This document shows positions 3,310 to 20,000 of a stretch of 20,000 nucleotides of DNA, one piece after another. Both the position numbers and the translations under genes were made by a program. The notes under the pieces were generated by a model. The model was not told the origin of the DNA and ran no database searches. It saw nothing but the letters and a program-made list of their open reading frames with translations. The stretch is from an uncultured virus (IMG/VR IMGVR_UViG_3300032007_000064) (Duplodnaviria; Heunggongvirae; Uroviricota; Caudoviricetes): the IMG/VR virus record IMGVR_UViG_3300032007_000064; one strand, given 5' to 3'. Position 1 is the stretch's first letter. Every line of letters starts with the position of its first letter.

Positions 3310-3403
3310 AGTACAGTGGGCAAAATGGTTAAAGCCAGCGCTCGCAGAGTAGCGTGGGGAATCTGATCAGTTTCCTCTGCAGGTTCGAATCCTGCCTGTA
3401 CTG
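3310..3403 (+). tRNA. Atypical class II (Ser/Leu-like) tRNA or pseudo-tRNA with an 8-nt anticodon loop
   Basis: Acceptor AGTACAG/CTGTACT with G discriminator; D arm GGC-AAAATGGTTAAA-GCC; stem GCGCT/AGCGT with loop CGCAGAGT; long variable arm; T arm GCAGG-TTCGAAT-CCTGC. Confidence 0.6.
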
Positions 3404-3560
3404 CACATCAAGGATAGCAACCTTGAGTTTGATGAAAGACTCAAATCTGGATTTTGTATAGGGTTCGCAACCCATAGGGGTCGGGGAAAATGGGATTGCC
3501 CGACAGCACGATTTGGTGGGAAACGTGCGTGATCACGAGGAATCACAAAAAGGAGGGCTT

Positions 3561-7915: not shown

Positions 7916-9154
7916 ATGTTTGAAATAAAAGGAAAAGTAAATACAGCTATATGCTACGCCAAAGTAATAGAGGATGAGGCAATCGAACAGATACGTCGTA
8001 TGTGTGACTATGAGATAACAGAAAACAGTCGAATACGAATCATGCCGGATGCACACGCAGGAAGCGGATGCACAATCGGCACTACAATGACGATTACCGA
8101 TAAGGTTGTTCCGAATATAGTTGGCGTGGATATCGGGTGCGGAATGTACACAGTTTATATAGGAAAAGATCCTATTGACTTTGAAAAAATCGATGAGGCA
8201 GCACATTATATTCCATCAGGAATGAATGTGTGGAACGAAAGCATTTATCCGTTTGATTTTAAACGACTGCGGTGCTATCAACATTTAAAGAATATCGATC
8301 GCTTAGAGTGCAGCTTAGGTACACTCGGCGGAGGAAATCACTTTATTGAAATCGATAAGATGCGATCGGAATTTAATTTCCTGGTAATTCATTCAGGATC
8401 ACGCAATTTAGGAAAACAGGTTGCTGAATATTATCAGGATCTTGCAATTGAATTAGCTTGTGGCAAAGATGATTACTTGGAAAAGCGAAACAGTATCATC
8501 AATGAATATAAAAGATTGGGTCGCCAAGATAAAATACAAAACGCACTGACAGAATTAAAACATGAATATGAGAGCAAGAAAACTACAATGCCTCATGATT
8601 TATGCTTTTTGTACGGAAAACATCTTGATGATTATTTACATGACGTTGAAATATGCCAAGAATTTGCAAAAACAAACCGGGAATTGATTGCCAAAATTAT
8701 ACTGGAAAGAACACATAATGATTACGGTCTTGAGTGCATGGTTAACGGAAACGGGTTTCATACAATTCATAATTACATTGACGTTAATGAGATGATATTG
8801 CGTAAAGGAGCAATTGCTGCACATGACTGGGAAGTCGTGGTAATACCTATCAACATGCGCGATGGATCAATAGTAGCAGTTGGAAGAGGAAATCCTGAGT
8901 GGAATTTCTCAGCTCCACATGGAGCTGGACGTATCATGTCGAGAAAGAAAGCGAAGGAAACGATTAACTTGGAAGAATACGAACGGTCTATGAGTGGTAT
9001 TTATACAACGTCAATTAATGAGGGGACACTTGATGAAGCACCGATGGCGTACAAATCAATTGACGATATCATTGATGTTATTCGGGAATCAGTAATGATT
9101 ATGGATGTAATGAAACCTGTATATAATTTCAAAGCAAGTGAAGAAAGGAGATAA
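7916..9154 (+). CDS. rtcB: RtcB-family RNA ligase (3'-phosphate/5'-OH)
   Basis: Motifs MPDAHAG.GCTIG, VGVDIGCGM, GTLGGGNHF, HSGSR, HNY, RKGA, SAPHGAGR, DEAPMAYK. Confidence 0.95.
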   Translation: MFEIKGKVNTAICYAKVIEDEAIEQIRRMCDYEITENSRIRIMPDAHAGSGCTIGTTMTITDKVVPNIVGVDIGCGMYTVYIGKDPIDFEKIDEAAHYIPSGMNVWNESIYPFDFKRLRCYQHLKNIDRLECSLGTLGGGNHFIEIDKMRSEFNFLVIHSGSRNLGKQVAEYYQDLAIELACGKDDYLEKRNSIINEYKRLGRQDKIQNALTELKHEYESKKTTMPHDLCFLYGKHLDDYLHDVEICQEFAKTNRELIAKIILERTHNDYGLECMVNGNGFHTIHNYIDVNEMILRKGAIAAHDWEVVVIPINMRDGSIVAVGRGNPEWNFSAPHGAGRIMSRKKAKETINLEEYERSMSGIYTTSINEGTLDEAPMAYKSIDDIIDVIRESVMIMDVMKPVYNFKASEERR

Positions 9155-10677: not shown

Positions 10678-12162
10678 ATGTTTGATAATAAAATAAGAAG
10701 AACACCATTTAACACATCATTTGCAAATACAGCATGTGGTCATATTGATGGTGAATCCTGGGCAAATGATAATACATTTGTTTCAACAATGCGGGCTTTG
10801 TTATTTAACAGAATGCCAAAGGAAAGCAGAATTACGTTTAGCACATATTCTTATAACTATGCGAAAAGCGTCATCGATACGAATGACGCGAGGAATGTGT
10901 TTAACGCAGTAGTTCCCAAGATAGAAGACGACACCATTAAGTTAATAGTGTTCAACAATGTTGGGTCAGATAGTGTAGTAAATAATAATGCTTTTCTGGA
11001 TTTTATCGAGGCAAATATTGAAAAAAGATATCCGGTTAAGCGTATCGAAAAGATCACTTCATACTTCAAAAAGACATTCAGATGTCTTTGTTATGTCAGC
11101 ACTGAACATCGTCAGTGCTTTATTTTTACCGAGTCCATTGACCTGAGAATGTATCATTACCTTCAGGTAGGAATTCTTGCATTTCTTCCGTGGTATTTTG
11201 ATAAAGAGTCTGGAACAACAGAAAAAGAAATCGCCCTTCTCGAATCTCTGCGCATGAAAAGATCTGATAGATACATGGAATGTTTGGCAGATATCGCAAG
11301 AGAATGTGATTTTCGTTCTGAATATACACAGAGATCGCTTAAAGGTATAGAGACGAGGGTTGAAAGACAGGAAATCGAAGCTCTTACGTCACGTATCAGC
11401 GATAGTGAACTAACAATCGAAGAATTTCAAAATAGAATAACCAGTAAACTTTCGGAAATTCGAGACTATAACATTAGAATTATGGGATTGAGAGCGAAAA
11501 TTGCACATGATGAAGAGAATGGTATTGAATCAGAAATCTTGAATTACTTCATGAAACATAAGAACAGACTGTTCCTTGAATATGCAGACGATAACGAGAT
11601 ACGATTTGTCGCCAAAGATTATCTCATGTTCTGGGATAAAGACATAGCACGTAAGCTATTTGATAATTCTACATCTGTCGCATACAACTGCGGAAATGAA
11701 ATTCGCGGTCCGTATACGAAAGAGGAAATGAAAGAATTGTTTGAAGAGATCTTCATTCGTAAGAATTTCAGAATTAAAGTTTGTGGTGCGTATGATTTCA
11801 ACATCGCTAATATGAGAGTGAGCGCTCCGAGCGGATATGCTTATAGTTATGAATTTGATGACTGTTTACCGAATCCTCACCTTGATAGATATGGTTGTCT
11901 TGGTTCGTATCAGAGTGCAATAACAGAGTTCATGAAGAACTCAGATTATATTGGCGCAATTGAACAGTGTATTGCATCTTGCAGGTCGTTGAATTTCGCG
12001 GACGGTCCGGTAATGAATGCATTATTTAGGAGCTGGTACAAAATCGAAGGTAGTGCAAATGTACGGTGTATTGAACTGCCGAACGGGGAAATTGTTGATC
12101 CTGCTGGTGCTATTAAATATATGCGGGAACAGAAAGGAGAGGAAAATGGCGAAAGTAATTAA
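10678..12162 (+). CDS. Large protein with central coiled coil and C-terminal E2/UBC-like domain
   Basis: PNPHLDRYGCLG resembles the H...CLG catalytic loop of prokaryotic E2s; context Ubl-JAB-E1. Confidence 0.6.
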   Translation: MFDNKIRRTPFNTSFANTACGHIDGESWANDNTFVSTMRALLFNRMPKESRITFSTYSYNYAKSVIDTNDARNVFNAVVPKIEDDTIKLIVFNNVGSDSVVNNNAFLDFIEANIEKRYPVKRIEKITSYFKKTFRCLCYVSTEHRQCFIFTESIDLRMYHYLQVGILAFLPWYFDKESGTTEKEIALLESLRMKRSDRYMECLADIARECDFRSEYTQRSLKGIETRVERQEIEALTSRISDSELTIEEFQNRITSKLSEIRDYNIRIMGLRAKIAHDEENGIESEILNYFMKHKNRLFLEYADDNEIRFVAKDYLMFWDKDIARKLFDNSTSVAYNCGNEIRGPYTKEEMKELFEEIFIRKNFRIKVCGAYDFNIANMRVSAPSGYAYSYEFDDCLPNPHLDRYGCLGSYQSAITEFMKNSDYIGAIEQCIASCRSLNFADGPVMNALFRSWYKIEGSANVRCIELPNGEIVDPAGAIKYMREQKGEENGESN

Positions 12163-12952
12163 AATGACCGAACAGGAAATCGACACACTCAGAGATGAGT
12201 TTGTTGAAGCACTTCGCAAAACGAAGATGAGTGACGGAAAGATCAGCTATACAAAAGACTTCGGCAAAATTGAGAAAAGGGCAACGCTGTTATATACGGA
12301 AATTGCCTGGTTGAAACAGTGTATGCTTGTTAATGAGTTCGATAAGGAAGTTGCATGGCACGGCGTTGCAGTACGCGGAGAGGAACCTTGCGAATACATT
12401 ATCGAAGACATTCTCGTTTATCCGCAGGAAGTAACTGGTGCAACAGTCAATACGGATCAGGAATGTTATCAGACATGGCTCTATAAACATCCGGATGAAA
12501 TATTTAACAACATCAGGATGCAGGGACATTCCCATGTAAATATGGGAACTTCACCGAGCGCTGTTGACACAACGTTGTACGAGTCGTTTTTGAGTCAGCT
12601 TAATGACACGATGTTTTATGTGTTTTCAATTTGGAATAAACGCGGGGAAAGAACGATCAAGATTTATGACCTTGCAGAAAACACGTTGTTTGAAACAGCA
12701 GATGTGGATTTGCGGATTATTGATAACGATCTTGGATTTGGTTCGTTCATCGATGATGCAAAAGATATGGTCAAAACAAAAACATATACACCACCCGCAA
12801 CAACACAGTACAAAGGTGGTTCTCAGGTTCCTGTTGCGAAAGATCCATACGCTTACGGTTATCGTAAGGGTACTAAGAAGAAAGCTGCTTCAGGAGATAA
12901 GTATCACTACAATAATTACAATAATTGGTATAGCGAAGATTGGTATGATTAA
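12146..12952 (+). CDS. JAB/MPN+ metallopeptidase (deubiquitinase-like)
   Basis: E(VAWHG) plus HSHVNMGTSPSAVD = HxH-x7-S-x2-D JAMM motif; AAAGGAGAGG RBS before ATG 12146. Confidence 0.9.
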   Translation: MAKVIKMTEQEIDTLRDEFVEALRKTKMSDGKISYTKDFGKIEKRATLLYTEIAWLKQCMLVNEFDKEVAWHGVAVRGEEPCEYIIEDILVYPQEVTGATVNTDQECYQTWLYKHPDEIFNNIRMQGHSHVNMGTSPSAVDTTLYESFLSQLNDTMFYVFSIWNKRGERTIKIYDLAENTLFETADVDLRIIDNDLGFGSFIDDAKDMVKTKTYTPPATTQYKGGSQVPVAKDPYAYGYRKGTKKKAASGDKYHYNNYNNWYSEDWYD

Positions 12953-13466: not shown

Positions 13467-14141
13467 ATGAATTTAACGAAATCTTATGAGTTTTTTCAGC
13501 CGGAAAAAGACGACACGAGGATTCACATTATCGGATGTGGATCTGTCGGATCAACACTTGCAGAAAACCTTGCAAGATGTGGTGTAAAGAATATGACACT
13601 GTGGGATTTTGACGATGTGGAAGAGCATAACATCGTCAATCAGATGTTCACCCAGAAACACGTTGGAATGCCAAAGGTTGAAGCTCTGAAAGATATTTTG
13701 TGCGATATTAATCCTGAAATCAAAAGTACAATCGATCTGGAACCTAAAGGCTGGCAGGGCGATATCATTTCTGGATACATATTCCTTGCAATTGATAGCA
13801 TTGATATTCGCAGGGATTTTGTAGAGAAACATATGGATAATCCGTATGTGAAAGCGGTATTTGATTTCCGTACAAGTCTTACATCGGCACAGCATTATGC
13901 TGCAGATTGGAGCAAAAGAAAACAGAAAGACATCCTCCTGAGTACAATGCAGTTCACTCATGAGGAAGCAGCGGAAGAGACTCCTGTTTCAGCTTGCGGT
14001 ATAACTCTCGGAGTCGCGACCACTGTTCGTCTAATTTGTGCTTATGGTGTAAATAATTATATTAGATTCACGAAAGGAGAGGGTATTTGGAAATTTGTTC
14101 AGACTGATGGATTTTATGGAATTTTAGATTGTTTCAGTTAA
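13467..14141 (+). CDS. ThiF/E1-like ubiquitin-activating enzyme
   Basis: GCGSVGS nucleotide-binding loop, DFDDVEEHNIVNQ, GMPKVEAL, AIDSIDIR, DFR, candidate catalytic Cys in SACG. Confidence 0.9.
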   Translation: MNLTKSYEFFQPEKDDTRIHIIGCGSVGSTLAENLARCGVKNMTLWDFDDVEEHNIVNQMFTQKHVGMPKVEALKDILCDINPEIKSTIDLEPKGWQGDIISGYIFLAIDSIDIRRDFVEKHMDNPYVKAVFDFRTSLTSAQHYAADWSKRKQKDILLSTMQFTHEEAAEETPVSACGITLGVATTVRLICAYGVNNYIRFTKGEGIWKFVQTDGFYGILDCFS

Positions 14142-14159
14142 TTGTTTTTAAAAAATTAA

Positions 14160-14481
14160 AATAGCTGAAGTGTTATTCGTGTATTTTTTTACACGGCTCT
14201 CAGTCGTAGGCGAGAGTTCCACCTTGATCGAAAAGAGAATGCGGGTATCCCGAGCTGGCAGTGCCGCGCCTTTGTGTTATAGTACAATGATTCGAACTCA
14301 AATTCGCTCAGATATCAAAGCCCAGATTCTCAACTCGGTCATCACCAAATGTTTACAGGGTTTTCACAAGGCAGTTATCCGGGGAAAATTTTTCTTCACC
14401 AATGCTTAATGTTACGAGATGTCAAAAGATGACGATCACCTGGAGGCTTGTAAAAGTTAAGACCATGCTGACTTCGCTATT
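14160..14481 (+). ncRNA. Retron-like msr-msd ncRNA no. 1
   Basis: Terminal inverted repeat AATAGC(T)GAAGT 14160-14171 / ACTTCGCTATT 14471-14481; candidate branch G14172; U-loop hairpin, then GCTCTC-AGTCGTAGGC-GAGAGT 14196-14217; directly upstream of the RT. Confidence 0.75.
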
Positions 14482-14493
14482 GAGGAAAAGAAG

Positions 14494-15720
14494 ATGAACA
14501 TAATGACGAAATATGTAGTATTTAAAAATCAGCCGGAATTTCGTCAGGCATCACTGCAGGATTTGTTATATTGTGATGATGATACAGATTTCGACGATGG
14601 TTTGAAACAAAGAGATTTAACTGGCACAAGAACATTTAACGTATATGACACATGGAGATACAGAAAGTCTGTAAATATATACAAAATTATTGAAGAACTC
14701 GAAAGATTTAACAAAAACACTGAGCATTTACGCGAAGTAGATCGGCATTCTTTGTATTACACATTTTATATTCCCAAGAAAACAAGGGGATACAGAAAAA
14801 TAGATGCACCGAATGCAGATCTTATGCTGGCTTTGCGGTATTTAAAATCTATTTTCGAGGAAAAATGTGTAGGGTATAAAAGCATTGGTGGTTTTACGAC
14901 ACAGTTATTTGCTTTGTATCATACAGCTGCATTTGCATATATCAAAAGAAGAGGCACAGTAGATTGTTTGAGAAAACATCAGAAAAATGATTCAAATTGG
15001 TATGCCAAATTTGATTTGAGCAACTTCTTTGGTTCAACAACGCTTGAATATACAATGCAGATGTTCTCAAGGATTTTCCCATTCTCTGAAATATGTAAAT
15101 ACACAACTGGCAGAAATGAATTAGAGAAGGCTCTTGAGTTAGCATTCTTGGATGGTGGTCTTCCACAGGGAACTCCAATTTCTCCGTTGATTACCAACAT
15201 TATTATGATTCCTGTTGACTTTGAACTCTACAACGGTTTTAGAAACTTTAAATGCACTGATAGAAACGGGGAAGAAAGAGAGCAACGTTGTGTTTACACA
15301 CGGTATGCAGATGACTTTATCGTATCTAGCAGGCTTGATTTCAAGTTCAAAGAAGCTCAGGAATACATTAATAGTGTACTAGCTAAGTTTAATGCTCCGT
15401 TTAAACTGAACGAAGAGAAAACAAGATATGGTTCAAGGTCGGGAAGTAACTGGAATCTTGGTCTTATGATTGGCCAGGACAACAAGATATCACTTGGACA
15501 CGCCAGAAAGAAACGACTTAAAGCAATGATTTCAAACTATGTCATGGATAAGAAAAGCGGAGTTCGTTGGCCGCTTGAAGTAATTCAGGAAATGGACGGT
15601 TTAAGAAGTTATTATTATATGATTGATTCTGAAGGTGCTGATGGAATGATGGCATATCTTTCAAATCGTTTTAATGTAAATATTATGGAAGAAATTAAAA
15701 ACGATTTGAGAGCTGCTTAA
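14494..15720 (+). CDS. Retron-like reverse transcriptase (408 aa, stand-alone)
   Basis: IPKKTRGYRKIDAP, AFAY...DCLRKH (region X position), KFDLSNFF, LPQGTPISP, YTRYADD, LNEEKTR, NLGL (VTG-equivalent); no maturase or nuclease extension. Confidence 0.9.
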   Translation: MNIMTKYVVFKNQPEFRQASLQDLLYCDDDTDFDDGLKQRDLTGTRTFNVYDTWRYRKSVNIYKIIEELERFNKNTEHLREVDRHSLYYTFYIPKKTRGYRKIDAPNADLMLALRYLKSIFEEKCVGYKSIGGFTTQLFALYHTAAFAYIKRRGTVDCLRKHQKNDSNWYAKFDLSNFFGSTTLEYTMQMFSRIFPFSEICKYTTGRNELEKALELAFLDGGLPQGTPISPLITNIIMIPVDFELYNGFRNFKCTDRNGEEREQRCVYTRYADDFIVSSRLDFKFKEAQEYINSVLAKFNAPFKLNEEKTRYGSRSGSNWNLGLMIGQDNKISLGHARKKRLKAMISNYVMDKKSGVRWPLEVIQEMDGLRSYYYMIDSEGADGMMAYLSNRFNVNIMEEIKNDLRAA

Positions 15721-15729
15721 ATATATTCG

Positions 15730-15877
15730 GATACGGTGGCGGAATAGGTAGACGCTTACGCCGTAAGGAAATGCTTTCATGAAACTCGGAACTATGCCAT
15801 CAAATAAGTGCATAACAACTAAGCCATGAAGGACGGGTGGTTTTCTATGCAAGGTGCAAATCCTTGCCCGTATCCCA
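15730..15877 (+). ncRNA. tRNA-Leu-like scaffold A with a 93-nt insert
   Basis: GATACGG/CCGTATC acceptor; D arm GCG-GAATAGGTAGA-CGC; GCAAGG-TGCAAAT-CCTTGC T arm; followed by CCA. Confidence 0.7.
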
Positions 15878-16006
15878 GATGCGGTGACGGAAAAGGTATA
15901 CGTGCGAAATGGGGCGGCGTAGGAAACCGTAAATACCAATACTCACGCGATCTCTGCTCCCCATGCTGATGGAGATCATGCAGGGTGCAAATCCCTGCCC
16001 GCATCT
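15878..16006 (+). ncRNA. tRNA-Leu-like scaffold B with a 76-nt insert
   Basis: GATGCGG/CCGCATC; ACG-GAAAAGGTATA-CGT; GCAGGG-TGCAAAT-CCCTGC (compensatory changes relative to A). Confidence 0.7.
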
Positions 16007-16060
16007 TCAAAAAAGCAAAACGTAACTGTTCACATTGTAAAGTATTGATTTATTAAAACG

Positions 16061-16162
16061 GATACGGTGGCGGAATAGGTAGACGCAACGAAATTTGTTT
16101 CCGTTATATCGATGGGGAGATATATAAGGTCACATGTAAGGTGCAAATCCTTGCCCGTATCT
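16061..16162 (+). ncRNA. tRNA-Leu-like scaffold C with a 49-nt insert
   Basis: Same acceptor and D arm as A; GTAAGG-TGCAAAT-CCTTGC. Confidence 0.7.
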
Positions 16163-16184
16163 GATTTATTTGATGGAAAGGAAA

Positions 16185-16355
16185 ATGGGAAGACGAAGAA
16201 GCGTTGATCAAAATGATAGTCAAGAAGAACCGCCGTGTTACTCATGTATTCATGCTGTAAAACGCGGTCCTTTTAGGTTATGCAACAGAGGTAAGGAAGG
16301 ATATAAACATATAGGAAAATGGACTTCTTGTGACGAACAAGAGGTTCCTGAATAA
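16185..16355 (+). CDS. Small Cys-rich protein (CxxC...C...C), possible Zn-binding
   Basis: GAAAGG upstream of ATG 16185; CYSC, RLC and TSC. Confidence 0.5.
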   Translation: MGRRRSVDQNDSQEEPPCYSCIHAVKRGPFRLCNRGKEGYKHIGKWTSCDEQEVPE

Positions 16356-16358
16356 AGA

Positions 16359-16576
16359 TTGCTGTAATGCCATTCGTGTATTTTTTTTACACGGCTCTCA
16401 GTCGTAGGCGAGAGTTCCACCTTGATCGAAAAGAGGATGCCTCCGGCGGATCAGCTGCAGGCGCACGGGATTGCAAAACCACCCCCGATGGCTACTCGAA
16501 CGATCCCAGTTGGCTGACTTCAGGTCCGGATCCTGCAGCTAACCGGTCTTCTAATAGGATTAACTGATTACAGCAA
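16359..16576 (+). ncRNA. Retron-like msr-msd ncRNA no. 2
   Basis: Perfect 10-bp TTGCTGTAAT 16359-16368 / ATTACAGCAA 16567-16576; candidate branch G16369; 16372-16440 nearly identical to 14175-14242; msd-like stem AGCTGCAGG/CCTGCAGCT. Confidence 0.75.
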
Positions 16577-16583
16577 AGTAATC

Positions 16584-16781
16584 ACCATGTAATGATGATT
16601 AATCACATACTTTTTAGTATTGATTGCTCCTAGTCGTAGGCGGGAGTACAACAGCGCGAGGATTTCTTTTAAAATTTTGCTACATAAACTTCTGCAAGCA
16701 TAAGTTTATTCCGCAAGATCTTAAAAGATGAGATTGCGTATTACGATGTCAACATTAGGCATCGCATACGGATTACATGGT
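16584..16781 (+). ncRNA. Retron-like msr-msd ncRNA no. 3
   Basis: Perfect 10-bp ACCATGTAAT 16584-16593 / ATTACATGGT 16772-16781; candidate branch G16594; U-loop hairpin; GCTCCT-AGTCGTAGGC-GGGAGT 16626-16647; long msd-like hairpin 16665-16728. Confidence 0.7.
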
Positions 16782-16815
16782 TCGTAACTAATTAACAAAA
16801 TTTGCGGAGGTTTCA

Positions 16816-16956
16816 ATGAGTAAACGCAGCGGAAAACAAACTGAATATGCAAGATTTAAACGTGCTATGGCGAGGCTTGAAGCGAGACTGGAAAAACAGA
16901 GACATGAGGAAACACAGAAACAATCAACAACCAACAAAGGGGAAAGTCGGGGGTAA
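16816..16956 (+). CDS. Small basic protein (46 aa, not in the ORF track)
   Basis: GGAGG RBS; MSKRSGKQTEYARFKRAMARLEARLEK...SRG*. Confidence 0.6.
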   Translation: MSKRSGKQTEYARFKRAMARLEARLEKQRHEETQKQSTTNKGESRG

Positions 16957-16960
16957 AACA

Positions 16961-17527
16961 ATGCATAAATTTAAAGACATTGAAGGTGTGCGTTTTGGAA
17001 AACTTGTTGTTCTTCAGAATAGAGGGTCCAAAAATGGAACAGCAGTATGCCAGTGTGACTGTGGTAATACAATTGAGGTGCGTCGTGATAACTTGTTTTC
17101 CGGCCATACAAAATCATGCGGATGTATAAAGGCAAGAAGACACAAAATGAACAAACCTGTAGTTGATCTGGCAACGGAAGAAGAACAGCTTGAAGAGATG
17201 ATCAACACTCCATTTGAGAACAGACGTAGATTATCCAGCATTAATAAGAAATATCATACGTCATATAAGCTTCGTAATAAACCGAAGACAAGCAAACGGA
17301 ATTCCAGTGGATATACCGGGGTTTTCTGGGATAAAAAGGCTAGAAGATGGAAAGCGTCTATCGCCTTTAGAGGAAAATACATATATCTTGGCTCTTTTAT
17401 TATCTTTGATGATGCTGTACAGAAGAGAAAAGAGGTAGAAGAAGAACTCTTTGCACCGGCAATTGAGGTTGTAAAAAAATACAGCAAAAAATCAATGAAA
17501 TGTGTTGACAATCAGACCGTGGCGTGA
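16961..17527 (+). CDS. AP2-domain DNA-binding protein with N-terminal Cys-rich module (homing-endonuclease related)
   Basis: RFGKLVV...CQCDCGN...SCGC, plus NSSGYTGV.WDKKARRWKASI...YLGSF...A...R AP2 signature. Confidence 0.8.
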   Translation: MHKFKDIEGVRFGKLVVLQNRGSKNGTAVCQCDCGNTIEVRRDNLFSGHTKSCGCIKARRHKMNKPVVDLATEEEQLEEMINTPFENRRRLSSINKKYHTSYKLRNKPKTSKRNSSGYTGVFWDKKARRWKASIAFRGKYIYLGSFIIFDDAVQKRKEVEEELFAPAIEVVKKYSKKSMKCVDNQTVA

Positions 17528-18944: not shown

Positions 18945-19017
18945 GGGTGTTTAGTTCAGTGGTCAGAACGCTTGGCTGTTAACCAAGAAGTCGTTGGTTC
19001 AAATCCCACAGCGCCCT
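18945..19017 (+). tRNA. tRNA-Asn(GTT), slightly degenerate
   Basis: Cloverleaf; CTTGG-CTGTTAA-CCAAG anticodon arm; one T-stem mismatch, two GU pairs in the acceptor, T discriminator, no encoded CCA. Confidence 0.8.
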
Positions 19018-19323
19018 TCAAGGCGGCTGAAAGTTTGGAGTATCAGTACACTTTACAGACGAAAGCTGTGATGCCCCCAACAATTACAAATAAAAGCAGT
19101 GTAACAGTACAATGGTGTGCTGTAATATTAAGTGAAGGTTTTCGTCTGCTTTTTCCTTAACTGGTAATTTGTTAGAGAGTAATAGAGTTTGGACATCAGG
19201 CAGTAAGTAGCGTATATAAGTGTACTGAAAGTAGCCAATAAGTGAACGTGCTTGAAAGAATATGGTTCTGCCTTATAACAGGAAAATAAAATGTTCGTTT
19301 GATACGAGGAATAAACGGTAATT

Positions 19324-19635
19324 ATGTTTAACGTTGGTGATGTTGTAAAAATAAGAGATGATTTAAGTCAGGAAAATAAATATCATTTATATGTAAGTCA
19401 TAAAATGACAGAATACGCTGGGTGTACAGCAAGAGTAAAAAGAAAACATTCATCGGAAATACTTAAAATTAAATTTCCAGATTGTGCAGATCTATTTGAT
19501 TTTCCATATTGTATGTATGAATTAGATCTAGATGGTATCAACAGTTCTACTGTTTGGTCTGATGATATGCTGGAAGAAGTGAATGATTTTAGAAACGTGG
19601 AATATGAAACTGAGGAACTAAATAATTTATATTGA
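19324..19635 (+). CDS. Hypothetical protein with an FNVGDVVKI (KOW/SH3-like) start
   Basis: 103-aa ORF; GAGG upstream. Confidence 0.7.
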   Translation: MFNVGDVVKIRDDLSQENKYHLYVSHKMTEYAGCTARVKRKHSSEILKIKFPDCADLFDFPYCMYELDLDGINSSTVWSDDMLEEVNDFRNVEYETEELNNLY

Positions 19636-19649
19636 ATATAATTTTAAAT

Positions 19650-19721
19650 TGCCCCTTCGCCAAGCGGCAAGGCACAGCACTTTGACTGCTGTATACAGTG
19701 GTTCGAATCCACTAGGGGCAG
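19650..19721 (+). tRNA. tRNA-Gln(TTG)
   Basis: TGCCCCT/AGGGGCA+G; GCC-AAGCGGCAA-GGC; CAGCA-CTTTGAC-TGCTG; AGTGG-TTCGAAT-CCACT. Confidence 0.92.
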
Positions 19722-19838
19722 TATGAGCGGAAACGTATCTTATATTTGGAAAAATATGTGCATGTATTTTTCCAGGAAATATAGTGAGATGCATCTGCGT
19801 TGAAACTCAGAACGTATAAGTAGACGTACTTATACGAT

Positions 19839-19911
19839 AGCCAGTTAGCTCAGATGGAGAGAGCGCTGCAATCCGTTGCAGAGGTCATCGGTTCGACTCC
19901 GGTACTGGCAG
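19839..19911 (+). pseudogene. tRNA-like element with a collapsed anticodon loop
   Basis: Normal D arm GCTC/GAGC and T arm ATCGG-TTCGACT-CCGGT, but the anticodon arm is CTGCAA-TCCG-TTGCAG; A1:A72 mismatch. Confidence 0.65.
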
Positions 19912-20000
19912 TTCCTTGGACGCAAGGAAATTTGCGATAAAAGACGTTCATGTACTCGGCGGAGTGAAGATGTACGATTTCCGGACGCGGAAATCATCGC

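Follow-up and report, generated by a model that had tools for sequence, protein, structure and literature searches.

On sequence grounds, the phage DNA analyzed here probably encodes a reverse transcriptase (RT) of the retron lineage that is served by several msr-msd-like RNAs. The stretch in question, called the window below, is 20 kb from a cattle-gut phage (uncultured Caudoviricetes virus, IMG/VR record IMGVR_UViG_3300032007_000064), and the sequence of positions 13900-17100 was inspected for the anatomy of its RNA-like units. A preliminary description, made from the letters of this DNA, had proposed one retron-like RT with several noncoding RNAs (ncRNAs) that have a common msr-like head and different bodies. 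This proposal is supported by the unit anatomy, by the number of matches to a covariance model of the head (R1), and by the comparison of the bodies. The element is phage-borne and two of its three units lie downstream of the RT gene, also as described.

Anatomy of the three units

The RT gene and the parts of the three units are as follows.

14494..15720, + strand: retron-like RT, 408 aa, between units 1 and 2 (Pfam RVT_1, 5e-18; YADD at residues 271-274)
14160..14481, + strand: unit 1 (U1), msr-msd-like ncRNA 5' of the RT gene, from anatomy, fold and R1 match
14160-14171, + strand: U1 5' arm, AATAGCTGAAGT
14172, + strand: U1 conserved G after the 5' arm
14178-14195, + strand: U1 hairpin 1, CGTGTA / T6 / TACACG
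14197-14216, + strand: U1 hairpin 2
about 14234-14469, + strand: U1 body
14470, + strand: U1 facing G
14471-14481, + strand: U1 3' arm, complementary to the 5' arm except for a one-base bulge
14157-14233, + strand: U1 match to R1, 51.5 bits, E 1.3e-8
16359..16576, + strand: unit 2 (U2), from anatomy, fold and R1 match
16359-16368, + strand: U2 5' arm
16369, + strand: U2 conserved G after the 5' arm
16375-16393 and 16395-16414, + strand: U2 hairpins
16432-16565, + strand: U2 body
16566, + strand: U2 facing G
16567-16576, + strand: U2 3' arm, 10/10 complementary to the 5' arm
16354-16431, + strand: U2 match to R1, 54.1 bits
16584..16781, + strand: unit 3 (U3), from anatomy, fold and R1 match
16584-16593, + strand: U3 5' arm
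16594, + strand: U3 conserved G after the 5' arm
16601-16625 and 16627-16646, + strand: U3 hairpins
16665-16728, + strand: U3 body hairpin, with 31-nt arms
16771, + strand: U3 facing G
16772-16781, + strand: U3 3' arm, 10/10 complementary to the 5' arm
16579-16663, + strand: U3 match to R1, 36.1 bits, E 5.8e-5

Each unit was found where the preliminary description had placed it. It has complementary arms of its own as a terminal inverted repeat, two Gs that face each other (one following the 5' arm, the other preceding the 3' arm), and two 5' hairpins followed by an unrelated body. The units are 198-322 nt long and their bodies 108-236 nt. U1 and U2 are 98% identical over 59 nt and 91% identical over about 88 nt, and in U3 the plan of hairpin 2 is kept by a compensatory change of the stem, from CTCTC/GAGAG to CTCCT/GGGAG. 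The sequence AGTCGTAGGC has exactly three occurrences in the 20 kb, one per unit and none elsewhere; when one mismatch was allowed there were still three matches, against 0.41 expected, a number that was reached in 3 of 200 shuffles. The three-unit pattern exceeds chance. In the minimum free energy folds of U1, U2, and U3, the terminal repeat is closed and both hairpins are formed in each. As whole units, U2 (z -2.81) and U3 (z -6.0) fold better than their shuffled versions, and U1 (z -0.4) does not.

Two details of the preliminary description had to be amended. The U-rich loop of hairpin 1 is present in the window (T6 in U1) but is not conserved across the family alignment. The invariant 10-nt loop ascribed to hairpin 2 occurs only in the three units but is really a bulge followed by three extra pairs and a 3-nt loop, since those pairs covary in relatives.

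Units per RT across the phage family

When 82 loci were each compared with themselves, a stretch about 250-350 nt before the RT start was seen to recur directly after the RT stop, and often again beyond. Forty-five such stretches were aligned with MAFFT, and the model R1 was built on this alignment of unit heads. The head plan common to the 45 stretches is an arm ending in YGYAAYG, a variable hairpin 1, hairpin 2 (consensus form GCTTY-N-GYC-NNN-GRC-RAAGT), and then AACAAYTTGAT. In the window, the only matches to R1 are the three units. At E<=0.1, the model had 161 matches in the window and 81 viral loci, all on the RT strand. The best 150 of these came from 60 sources, 32 of which had three units, 17 two, 3 four, and 8 one; that is, 52 of the 60 carry two to four. 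The preliminary description had proposed a count of this kind, with a covariance model of the msr near homologous RTs, and its outcome agrees with the multiplicity seen in the window. Units typically lie about -300 to -390 before the RT start, directly 3' of the RT stop, and in tandem, and five whole phage records contain 2-5 units apiece, nearly all beside the RT. Multiplexing is the norm in this phage RT family, a point absent from the preliminary description. Because the several-unit layout is found again and again in a large family of gut phages, it is probable that one enzyme gives rise to several different small DNAs. Weak isolated matches to the unit head were also seen 15-20 kb from the RT, at G001:C1:31219-31257 (record of locus L021) and G005:C1:49002-49071 (record of locus L012); these may be orphan or degenerate units.

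The units matched no Rfam family, introns included, either at the gathering threshold or at E<=1. The exact hairpin 2 had 0 matches in viral contigs, and a blastn search of the window against the INPHARED phages gave no match. A 15-base pattern, which is unspecific, was met in 120 metagenome stretches from unrelated environments, none of which matched the window; 1 of the 120 had the complete hairpin context, in unrelated G+C-rich DNA.

Covariation and the conserved G

Hairpin 2 is paired in 96% of cases in the MAFFT alignment, with changes on both sides in 6 of its 8 pairs. In a model-fitted alignment, which has 116 distinct rows and is biased towards the model, the figure is 97.6% and 7 of the 8 pairs are compensatory, as against 40-49% pairing in slid controls. 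Hairpin 1 is variable, in length as well as in sequence, and both-side changes occur in every one of its 6 pairs.

Of 150 units, 142 have the G that follows the 5' arm. With the terminal repeat anchored on this G, at least 9 matches were found in 99 of the 150 units (mean 9.2, vs 5.7 in shuffled sequences); in these 99, the median distance to the downstream repeat is 278 nt (range 178-343), and a G precedes the 3' arm in 97. Because this count selects on pairing, the test of the arms was repeated with the 3' arm located by its conserved core alone, namely a G plus the complement of six conserved bases, which could be placed in 122 of 148 distinct units. In these 122, arm positions 7-10 pair in 88, 93, 70, and 57% of units, vs 37, 33, 35, and 25% when the arms are swapped between units. 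The hairpin and inverted-repeat covariation on which the preliminary description had staked its case is present in the homologous loci, in hairpin 2 and in the outer arm positions, and the structure of the unit head is under selection. In retron Ec86, too, a G faces a G at the stem end.

The variable bodies

Among the bodies with clear borders, 98 of 100 are distinct, and they fall into 65 similarity clusters. That the units diverge into unrelated bodies holds throughout the family: within one locus there are 0 similar pairs, and between loci similarity was seen only in near-identical phages and at the same position. The bodies are C-rich and T-poor, with C at 0.29 and T at 0.20, vs 0.20 and 0.26 in the loci. 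Within the window, only the body of U3 is strongly folded.

Strains of the window phage were compared by means of contigs from three other bovine-gut runs. The U1 body (14259-14448) differs from that of strains X4 and X5 at 32 listed positions and by 2 indels, about 17%, vs about 1% in the RT gene, and the adjoining head is unchanged except for the length of a T run. The differences are mostly transitions and are not adenine-specific. No second copy of the bodies was found in the window, nor did units 2-3 of a complete 116-kb relative have one in that genome. Because the bodies have no second copy, a reading as self-targeting donors or as templates of the diversity-generating retroelement (DGR) type is unsupported. 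The bodies were also considered as donors or guides against the phage's own genome, and this was rejected, with no match in the window or in the complete 116-kb relative. A promoter and terminator scan was uninformative, because it found fewer sites than in shuffled sequences.

The reverse transcriptase

All 25 PADLOC matches listed for the RT are retron RT models, the best being RT_II-A (2.8e-37, 127 bits). In NCBIfam, retron_St85_RT came first, with group II intron, Drt2, and Drt3a models far lower. Among 13 matches to Protein Data Bank (PDB) sequences, six are named as retron proteins, five of these being Ec83, Ec78, Ec86, or Ec67; the others are five unnamed RNA-directed DNA polymerases and one designed TIM barrel, and no match bears the name of another RT class. 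The YADD box is present in 24 of 24 aligned RTs, and the N-terminus of the phage enzyme has about 85 extra residues. Homologs of the RT numbered 3899 at E<=0.001, and the best 120 listed are 49-65% identical to it, apart from its own record at 100%. In IMG/VR, 364 stretches with confirmed RT homologs were found on contigs of up to 150 kb. Among species genomes, the matches of at least 33% identity are in bins of metagenome-assembled genomes labeled Clostridia and one short contig labeled Bacteroides; identity then drops sharply, to 27% or less. Fifty of the RTs from these genomes were scanned, and their matches are to PADLOC retron RT models.

At its C-terminus (15700-15720) the RT carries a conserved IKxDLR[A/G] tail, and a few members of the family have LRGG plus extra residues. 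Such ends recall ubiquitin-like precursors. A ubiquitin-like GG tail was considered for the C-terminus and set aside as a lead only, 25 of 88 members ending in R.

Genes upstream of the RT

Three genes, which the preliminary description had passed over, precede U1 and the RT on the same strand.

13467..14141, + strand: ThiF/E1-like adenylyltransferase, 224 aa, directly 5' of U1 (Pfam ThiF, 6.4e-23; matches Cap2-type E1-E2 models of PADLOC and NCBIfam)
12017..12952, + strand: JAB/JAMM metalloprotease-like protein, 311 aa, with invariant E111, H171-S-H173, S181, and D184
10678..12162, + strand: protein of 494 aa with a long central helix and a possible RWD/UBC (E2)-like C-terminal domain

The ThiF-like protein has an invariant GxGxxG, D47, D49, R115, and C177, and it is 80% identical to its counterpart at locus L002, at which the RT is 56% identical. 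The profile of the 311-aa protein matches RPN11 at E 2.7e-4, and 7 of 21 members of its family match Prok-JAB weakly; there is also an Atlas lead. For the 494-aa protein, an AlphaFold2 (AF2) model was obtained with a pLDDT of 92, and H401, C407, and G409 are invariant. Its residues 284-438 align to the Knl1 RWD domain with a VIA-align Z of 6.8, which is tied with coiled-coil noise, and a weak Atlas lead points to Prok-E2_D. Foldseek with the model against the PDB gave nothing at E<=0.001, and its profile against PDB sequences gave coiled-coil noise only. An E2-like role of this protein is, from its model, a weak lead.

The 494-aa gene was found upstream of the RT in 84 of 112 sources, the JAB gene in 87, and the ThiF gene in 90. 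The order of the block is kept wherever upstream DNA is present, down to 34% RT identity, and the genes downstream are not conserved. The block may be a functional partner of the RT, or it may be kept beside it simply by synteny among related phages.

Proposed mode of action and alternative explanations

Under the reading favored here, each unit would be transcribed, read on the RT strand, and processed, and its two ends would pair over about 10 bp in an a1/a2-like stem. This terminal stem would set the conserved G beside the 3' end of the template, opposite the second conserved G. The two 5' hairpins, which the units of one phage have in common, are the likely docking site of the RT; because of these common hairpins, one RT could use every unit. 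Priming would most likely occur at the conserved G, whose 2'-OH is used in retrons, and the RT would copy the unit's own body into a unit-specific single-stranded DNA, predicted to be rich in G and T. With low confidence, we suggest that the variable DNAs serve as decoys or sensors in conflicts of the phage with its host or with other phages; the preliminary description had proposed decoys or antitoxins, which is likewise a conjecture. As for the enzymes of ubiquitin-like conjugation, they may control the RT or be its effector arm. A fuller scheme of multiplexed DNA synthesis, in which the RT reads two to five interchangeable templates and works with an E1-like/JAB/E2-like module that modifies it or is directed by it, is put forward tentatively, as a possibility that we think has the odds against it.

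Several observations weigh against the retron-lineage reading. The RT lies below every curated retron threshold, so that the retron-like character claimed in the preliminary description holds for its best matches, which are all retron RTs, but not for its scores (146 vs 235 bits for retron_St85_RT). When 50 bacterial RTs were scored on the PADLOC model of their own type, 47 reached about 300-690 bits and three 160-210, vs 127 for the phage RT. Because its best matches are retron RTs and its scores are below type level, the enzyme appears to be kin to retron RTs yet in none of the typed groups; judged by these profiles, it is nearest to retron RTs and outside the typed groups. In an alignment to Ec83, the counterparts of the retron 'NAxxH' and 'VTG' boxes read CLRKH and NLG. 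No classical retron effector adjoins the RT, whose neighbors are the ThiF-like, JAB-like, and 494-aa genes. A classical retron msd is a stable hairpin, whereas most bodies here are not: in 67 representatives, folding was mostly like that of shuffled sequences (median z -0.87, with 13% below -2), and the structured bodies of the preliminary description are not a general property of the family. In a fixed register, no more than 66.5% of the cells of hairpin 1 are paired, and 26 of the 148 distinct units have no detectable core 3' arm. The sequencing runs that contain the window DNA are bovine gut metagenomes, with no RNA run among them.

The main rival is that the units template cDNA in a non-retron manner, only part of each being copied, with no 2'-5' branch at the G and perhaps with a need for the neighboring proteins. 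The model for this is UG27. A bioRxiv preprint (10.64898/2026.09.22.753630, September 2026) describes UG27 RTs, which come from gut prophages and belong to an apparently different lineage of phage RTs, with variable arrays of about 150-nt ncRNAs, whose central hairpins are copied into 50-100-nt cDNAs and which need two accessory open reading frames (ORFs); Mestre et al. 2022 (PMC9226505) place UG27 in gut phages. As described there, UG27 resembles the present family in its phage-borne RT, its gut phage habitat, the conserved accessory genes beside the RT, and an array of units that conserve structure, differ in sequence, and vary in number between relatives. The three conserved genes that precede the RT here, its failure to reach retron cut-offs, and bodies unlike msd hairpins fit this rival as well. 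However, the conserved G lies exactly at the end of the covarying terminal stem and faces a conserved G, which is the geometry of retron Ec86. The UG27 RT is, by its description, a class 2 UG enzyme with YSDD, and by that description it would differ from the present enzyme, which is nearest to retron RTs and has an invariant YADD. The UG27 units are given as about 135-167 nt long, with an internal-loop motif (AUCN7UANAG / UUYA) and a pseudoknot, whereas the units here are about 200-320 nt and show none of these in the window; the boundary motif ATCN7TANAG is in none of the three units and has 3 matches elsewhere in the window, which is the chance level. Finally, the UG27 accessory proteins (sORF and bORF) are presented there as having no known domains, whereas ThiF and JAB are found here. 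We consider copying in the manner of UG27 unlikely, if still to be reckoned with.

That the units are structured RNAs which never undergo reverse transcription is, in our judgment, improbable; they would then be, for example, regulatory elements bound by the RT, signals for processing, or small regulatory RNAs of a phage tRNA/RNA region. This explanation draws on the location of the units, which in many loci adjoin tRNA gene arrays or are embedded in them and in the window adjoin tRNA-like elements, on the chance that the common head is a protein-binding operator, and on the DNA products being predicted ones. Against it stand the strict linkage of the units to an RT with an intact catalytic box, the retron-like architecture of terminal stem, G, and two hairpins, and bodies that are long, fast-evolving, and weakly structured, as would not be expected of a regulatory hairpin.

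Very improbable, and largely refuted, is that the units are mobile or recombination elements (MITE-like, or template and variable repeats of the DGR type) or small hypervariable protein genes: they do have terminal inverted repeats and hypervariable bodies, the conserved ATG and TAG of their 5' and 3' ends resemble a start and a stop, and U2 is an open frame of 66 codons, but the arms differ between copies and remain complementary while the bodies differ, the opposite of a MITE, every copy has the strand of the RT and almost all adjoin it, the bodies have no second copy in the window or the complete relative, the strain differences are mostly transitions and show no preference for adenine, and Rfam gives no intron or other family. 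As small genes the units were rejected directly, the frame from the ATG being open as far as the 3' arm in just 1 of 98 (U2 of the window), with ACG at the supposed start in 21 and a median of 14 open codons.

Relation to known systems

Retrons are understood as bacterial defense systems of one RT, one template RNA, and one effector. The phage family is like retrons such as Eco1/Ec86, Sen2/St85, Eco7/Ec78, and Ec83 in the best profile and structure-database matches of its RT, in an ncRNA that lies upstream of the RT on the same strand and has a terminal inverted repeat ending at a conserved G, and in covarying 5' stem-loops. Whereas retrons have one ncRNA per RT, there are two to five here, some of them downstream of the RT gene, and their bodies are long, C-rich, T-poor, and mostly unstructured. 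The RT also differs in its N-terminal extension and in failing all curated type thresholds, and the carrier is a large gut phage in which the neighbors are E1-like, JAB, and E2-like genes rather than a known retron effector. The msDNA of the phage family is a predicted one. The nearest published analog is the UG27 ncRNA array, in what appears to be a different RT lineage. A search of the full-text literature, which did not extend to bioRxiv supplements, those of UG27 included, found no account of a phage RT of the retron lineage that has multiple msr-msd units or E1/JAB neighbors.

In type II CBASS, Cap2 (E1-E2) and Cap3 (JAB) act on the C-terminus of the CD-NTase. As in that system, the gene of a nucleotide-polymerizing enzyme here adjoins E1-like, E2-like, and JAB genes. 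Here, however, an RT takes the place of the CD-NTase, E1 and E2 are not joined in one protein, the assignment of E2 is weak, and the RT C-terminus is R or A as often as G. The hallmark of DGRs, a template with an adenine-mutated variable repeat in a target gene, was not seen, there being no second body copy in the window or in the complete relative.

Other neighboring features

Between the RT and U2, three tRNA-like elements were recognized.

15729-15875, + strand: tRNA-like element T1, from direct repeats and folds
15877-16006, + strand: tRNA-like element T2, from direct repeats and folds
16060-16162, + strand: tRNA-like element T3, from direct repeats and folds

T1-T3 have a Leu-type D-arm, a T-arm (loop TGCAAAT), an 8-bp acceptor stem, and a non-canonical middle of 40-90 nt. 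The shells of T1 and T3 are identical and their middles different, and both elements are absent from strains X4-X6. Taken by themselves, the shells have matches in many high-depth contigs of the same metagenomes. As tRNAs, T1-T3 have no ARAGORN call, by default or with introns allowed, and no Rfam call; at the 80% threshold only, ARAGORN reads T3 as a tRNA-Thr with a 6-nt intron.

Elsewhere in the window are an RtcB RNA ligase gene (7916-9154; Pfam 4.7e-56) and, at 18945-19912, tRNA genes for Asn and Gln and one with an odd anticodon loop. ARAGORN tRNAs with irregular anticodon loops lie at 3310-3404 (4-base 'caga') and 19838-19912 (2-base 'cc'), and the second reaches the Rfam tRNA threshold. 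In many loci, tRNA gene arrays lie 3' of the units, with up to 12 genes in L205, L012, and L046, and a tmRNA is present in L041. A Cys-rich ORF of 61 aa (16170-16355) between T3 and U2 is also found directly after the RT in L002 (66% identity) and in no other locus searched. Directly 3' of U3 is an HNH endonuclease gene (16847-17527; PHROG 374, 1.2e-28), which is also near the RT in L002 and L043 and, because of this, suggests a mobile insertion.

Significance

The picture that emerges is one of phage enzymes of a retron-related lineage that would use several templates with unrelated, fast-changing bodies, beside genes for ubiquitin-like conjugation. Should the DNAs prove to be made, this would show retron chemistry put to the phages' own use, and the family would offer a natural case of one RT with several cargoes on a common RNA handle, useful for multiplexed retron editors. 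The role of small DNAs in phage infection would then become testable. If the RT does act together with the conjugation module, this would be the first link of reverse transcription to ubiquitin-like signaling, in conflict with hosts or rival phages.

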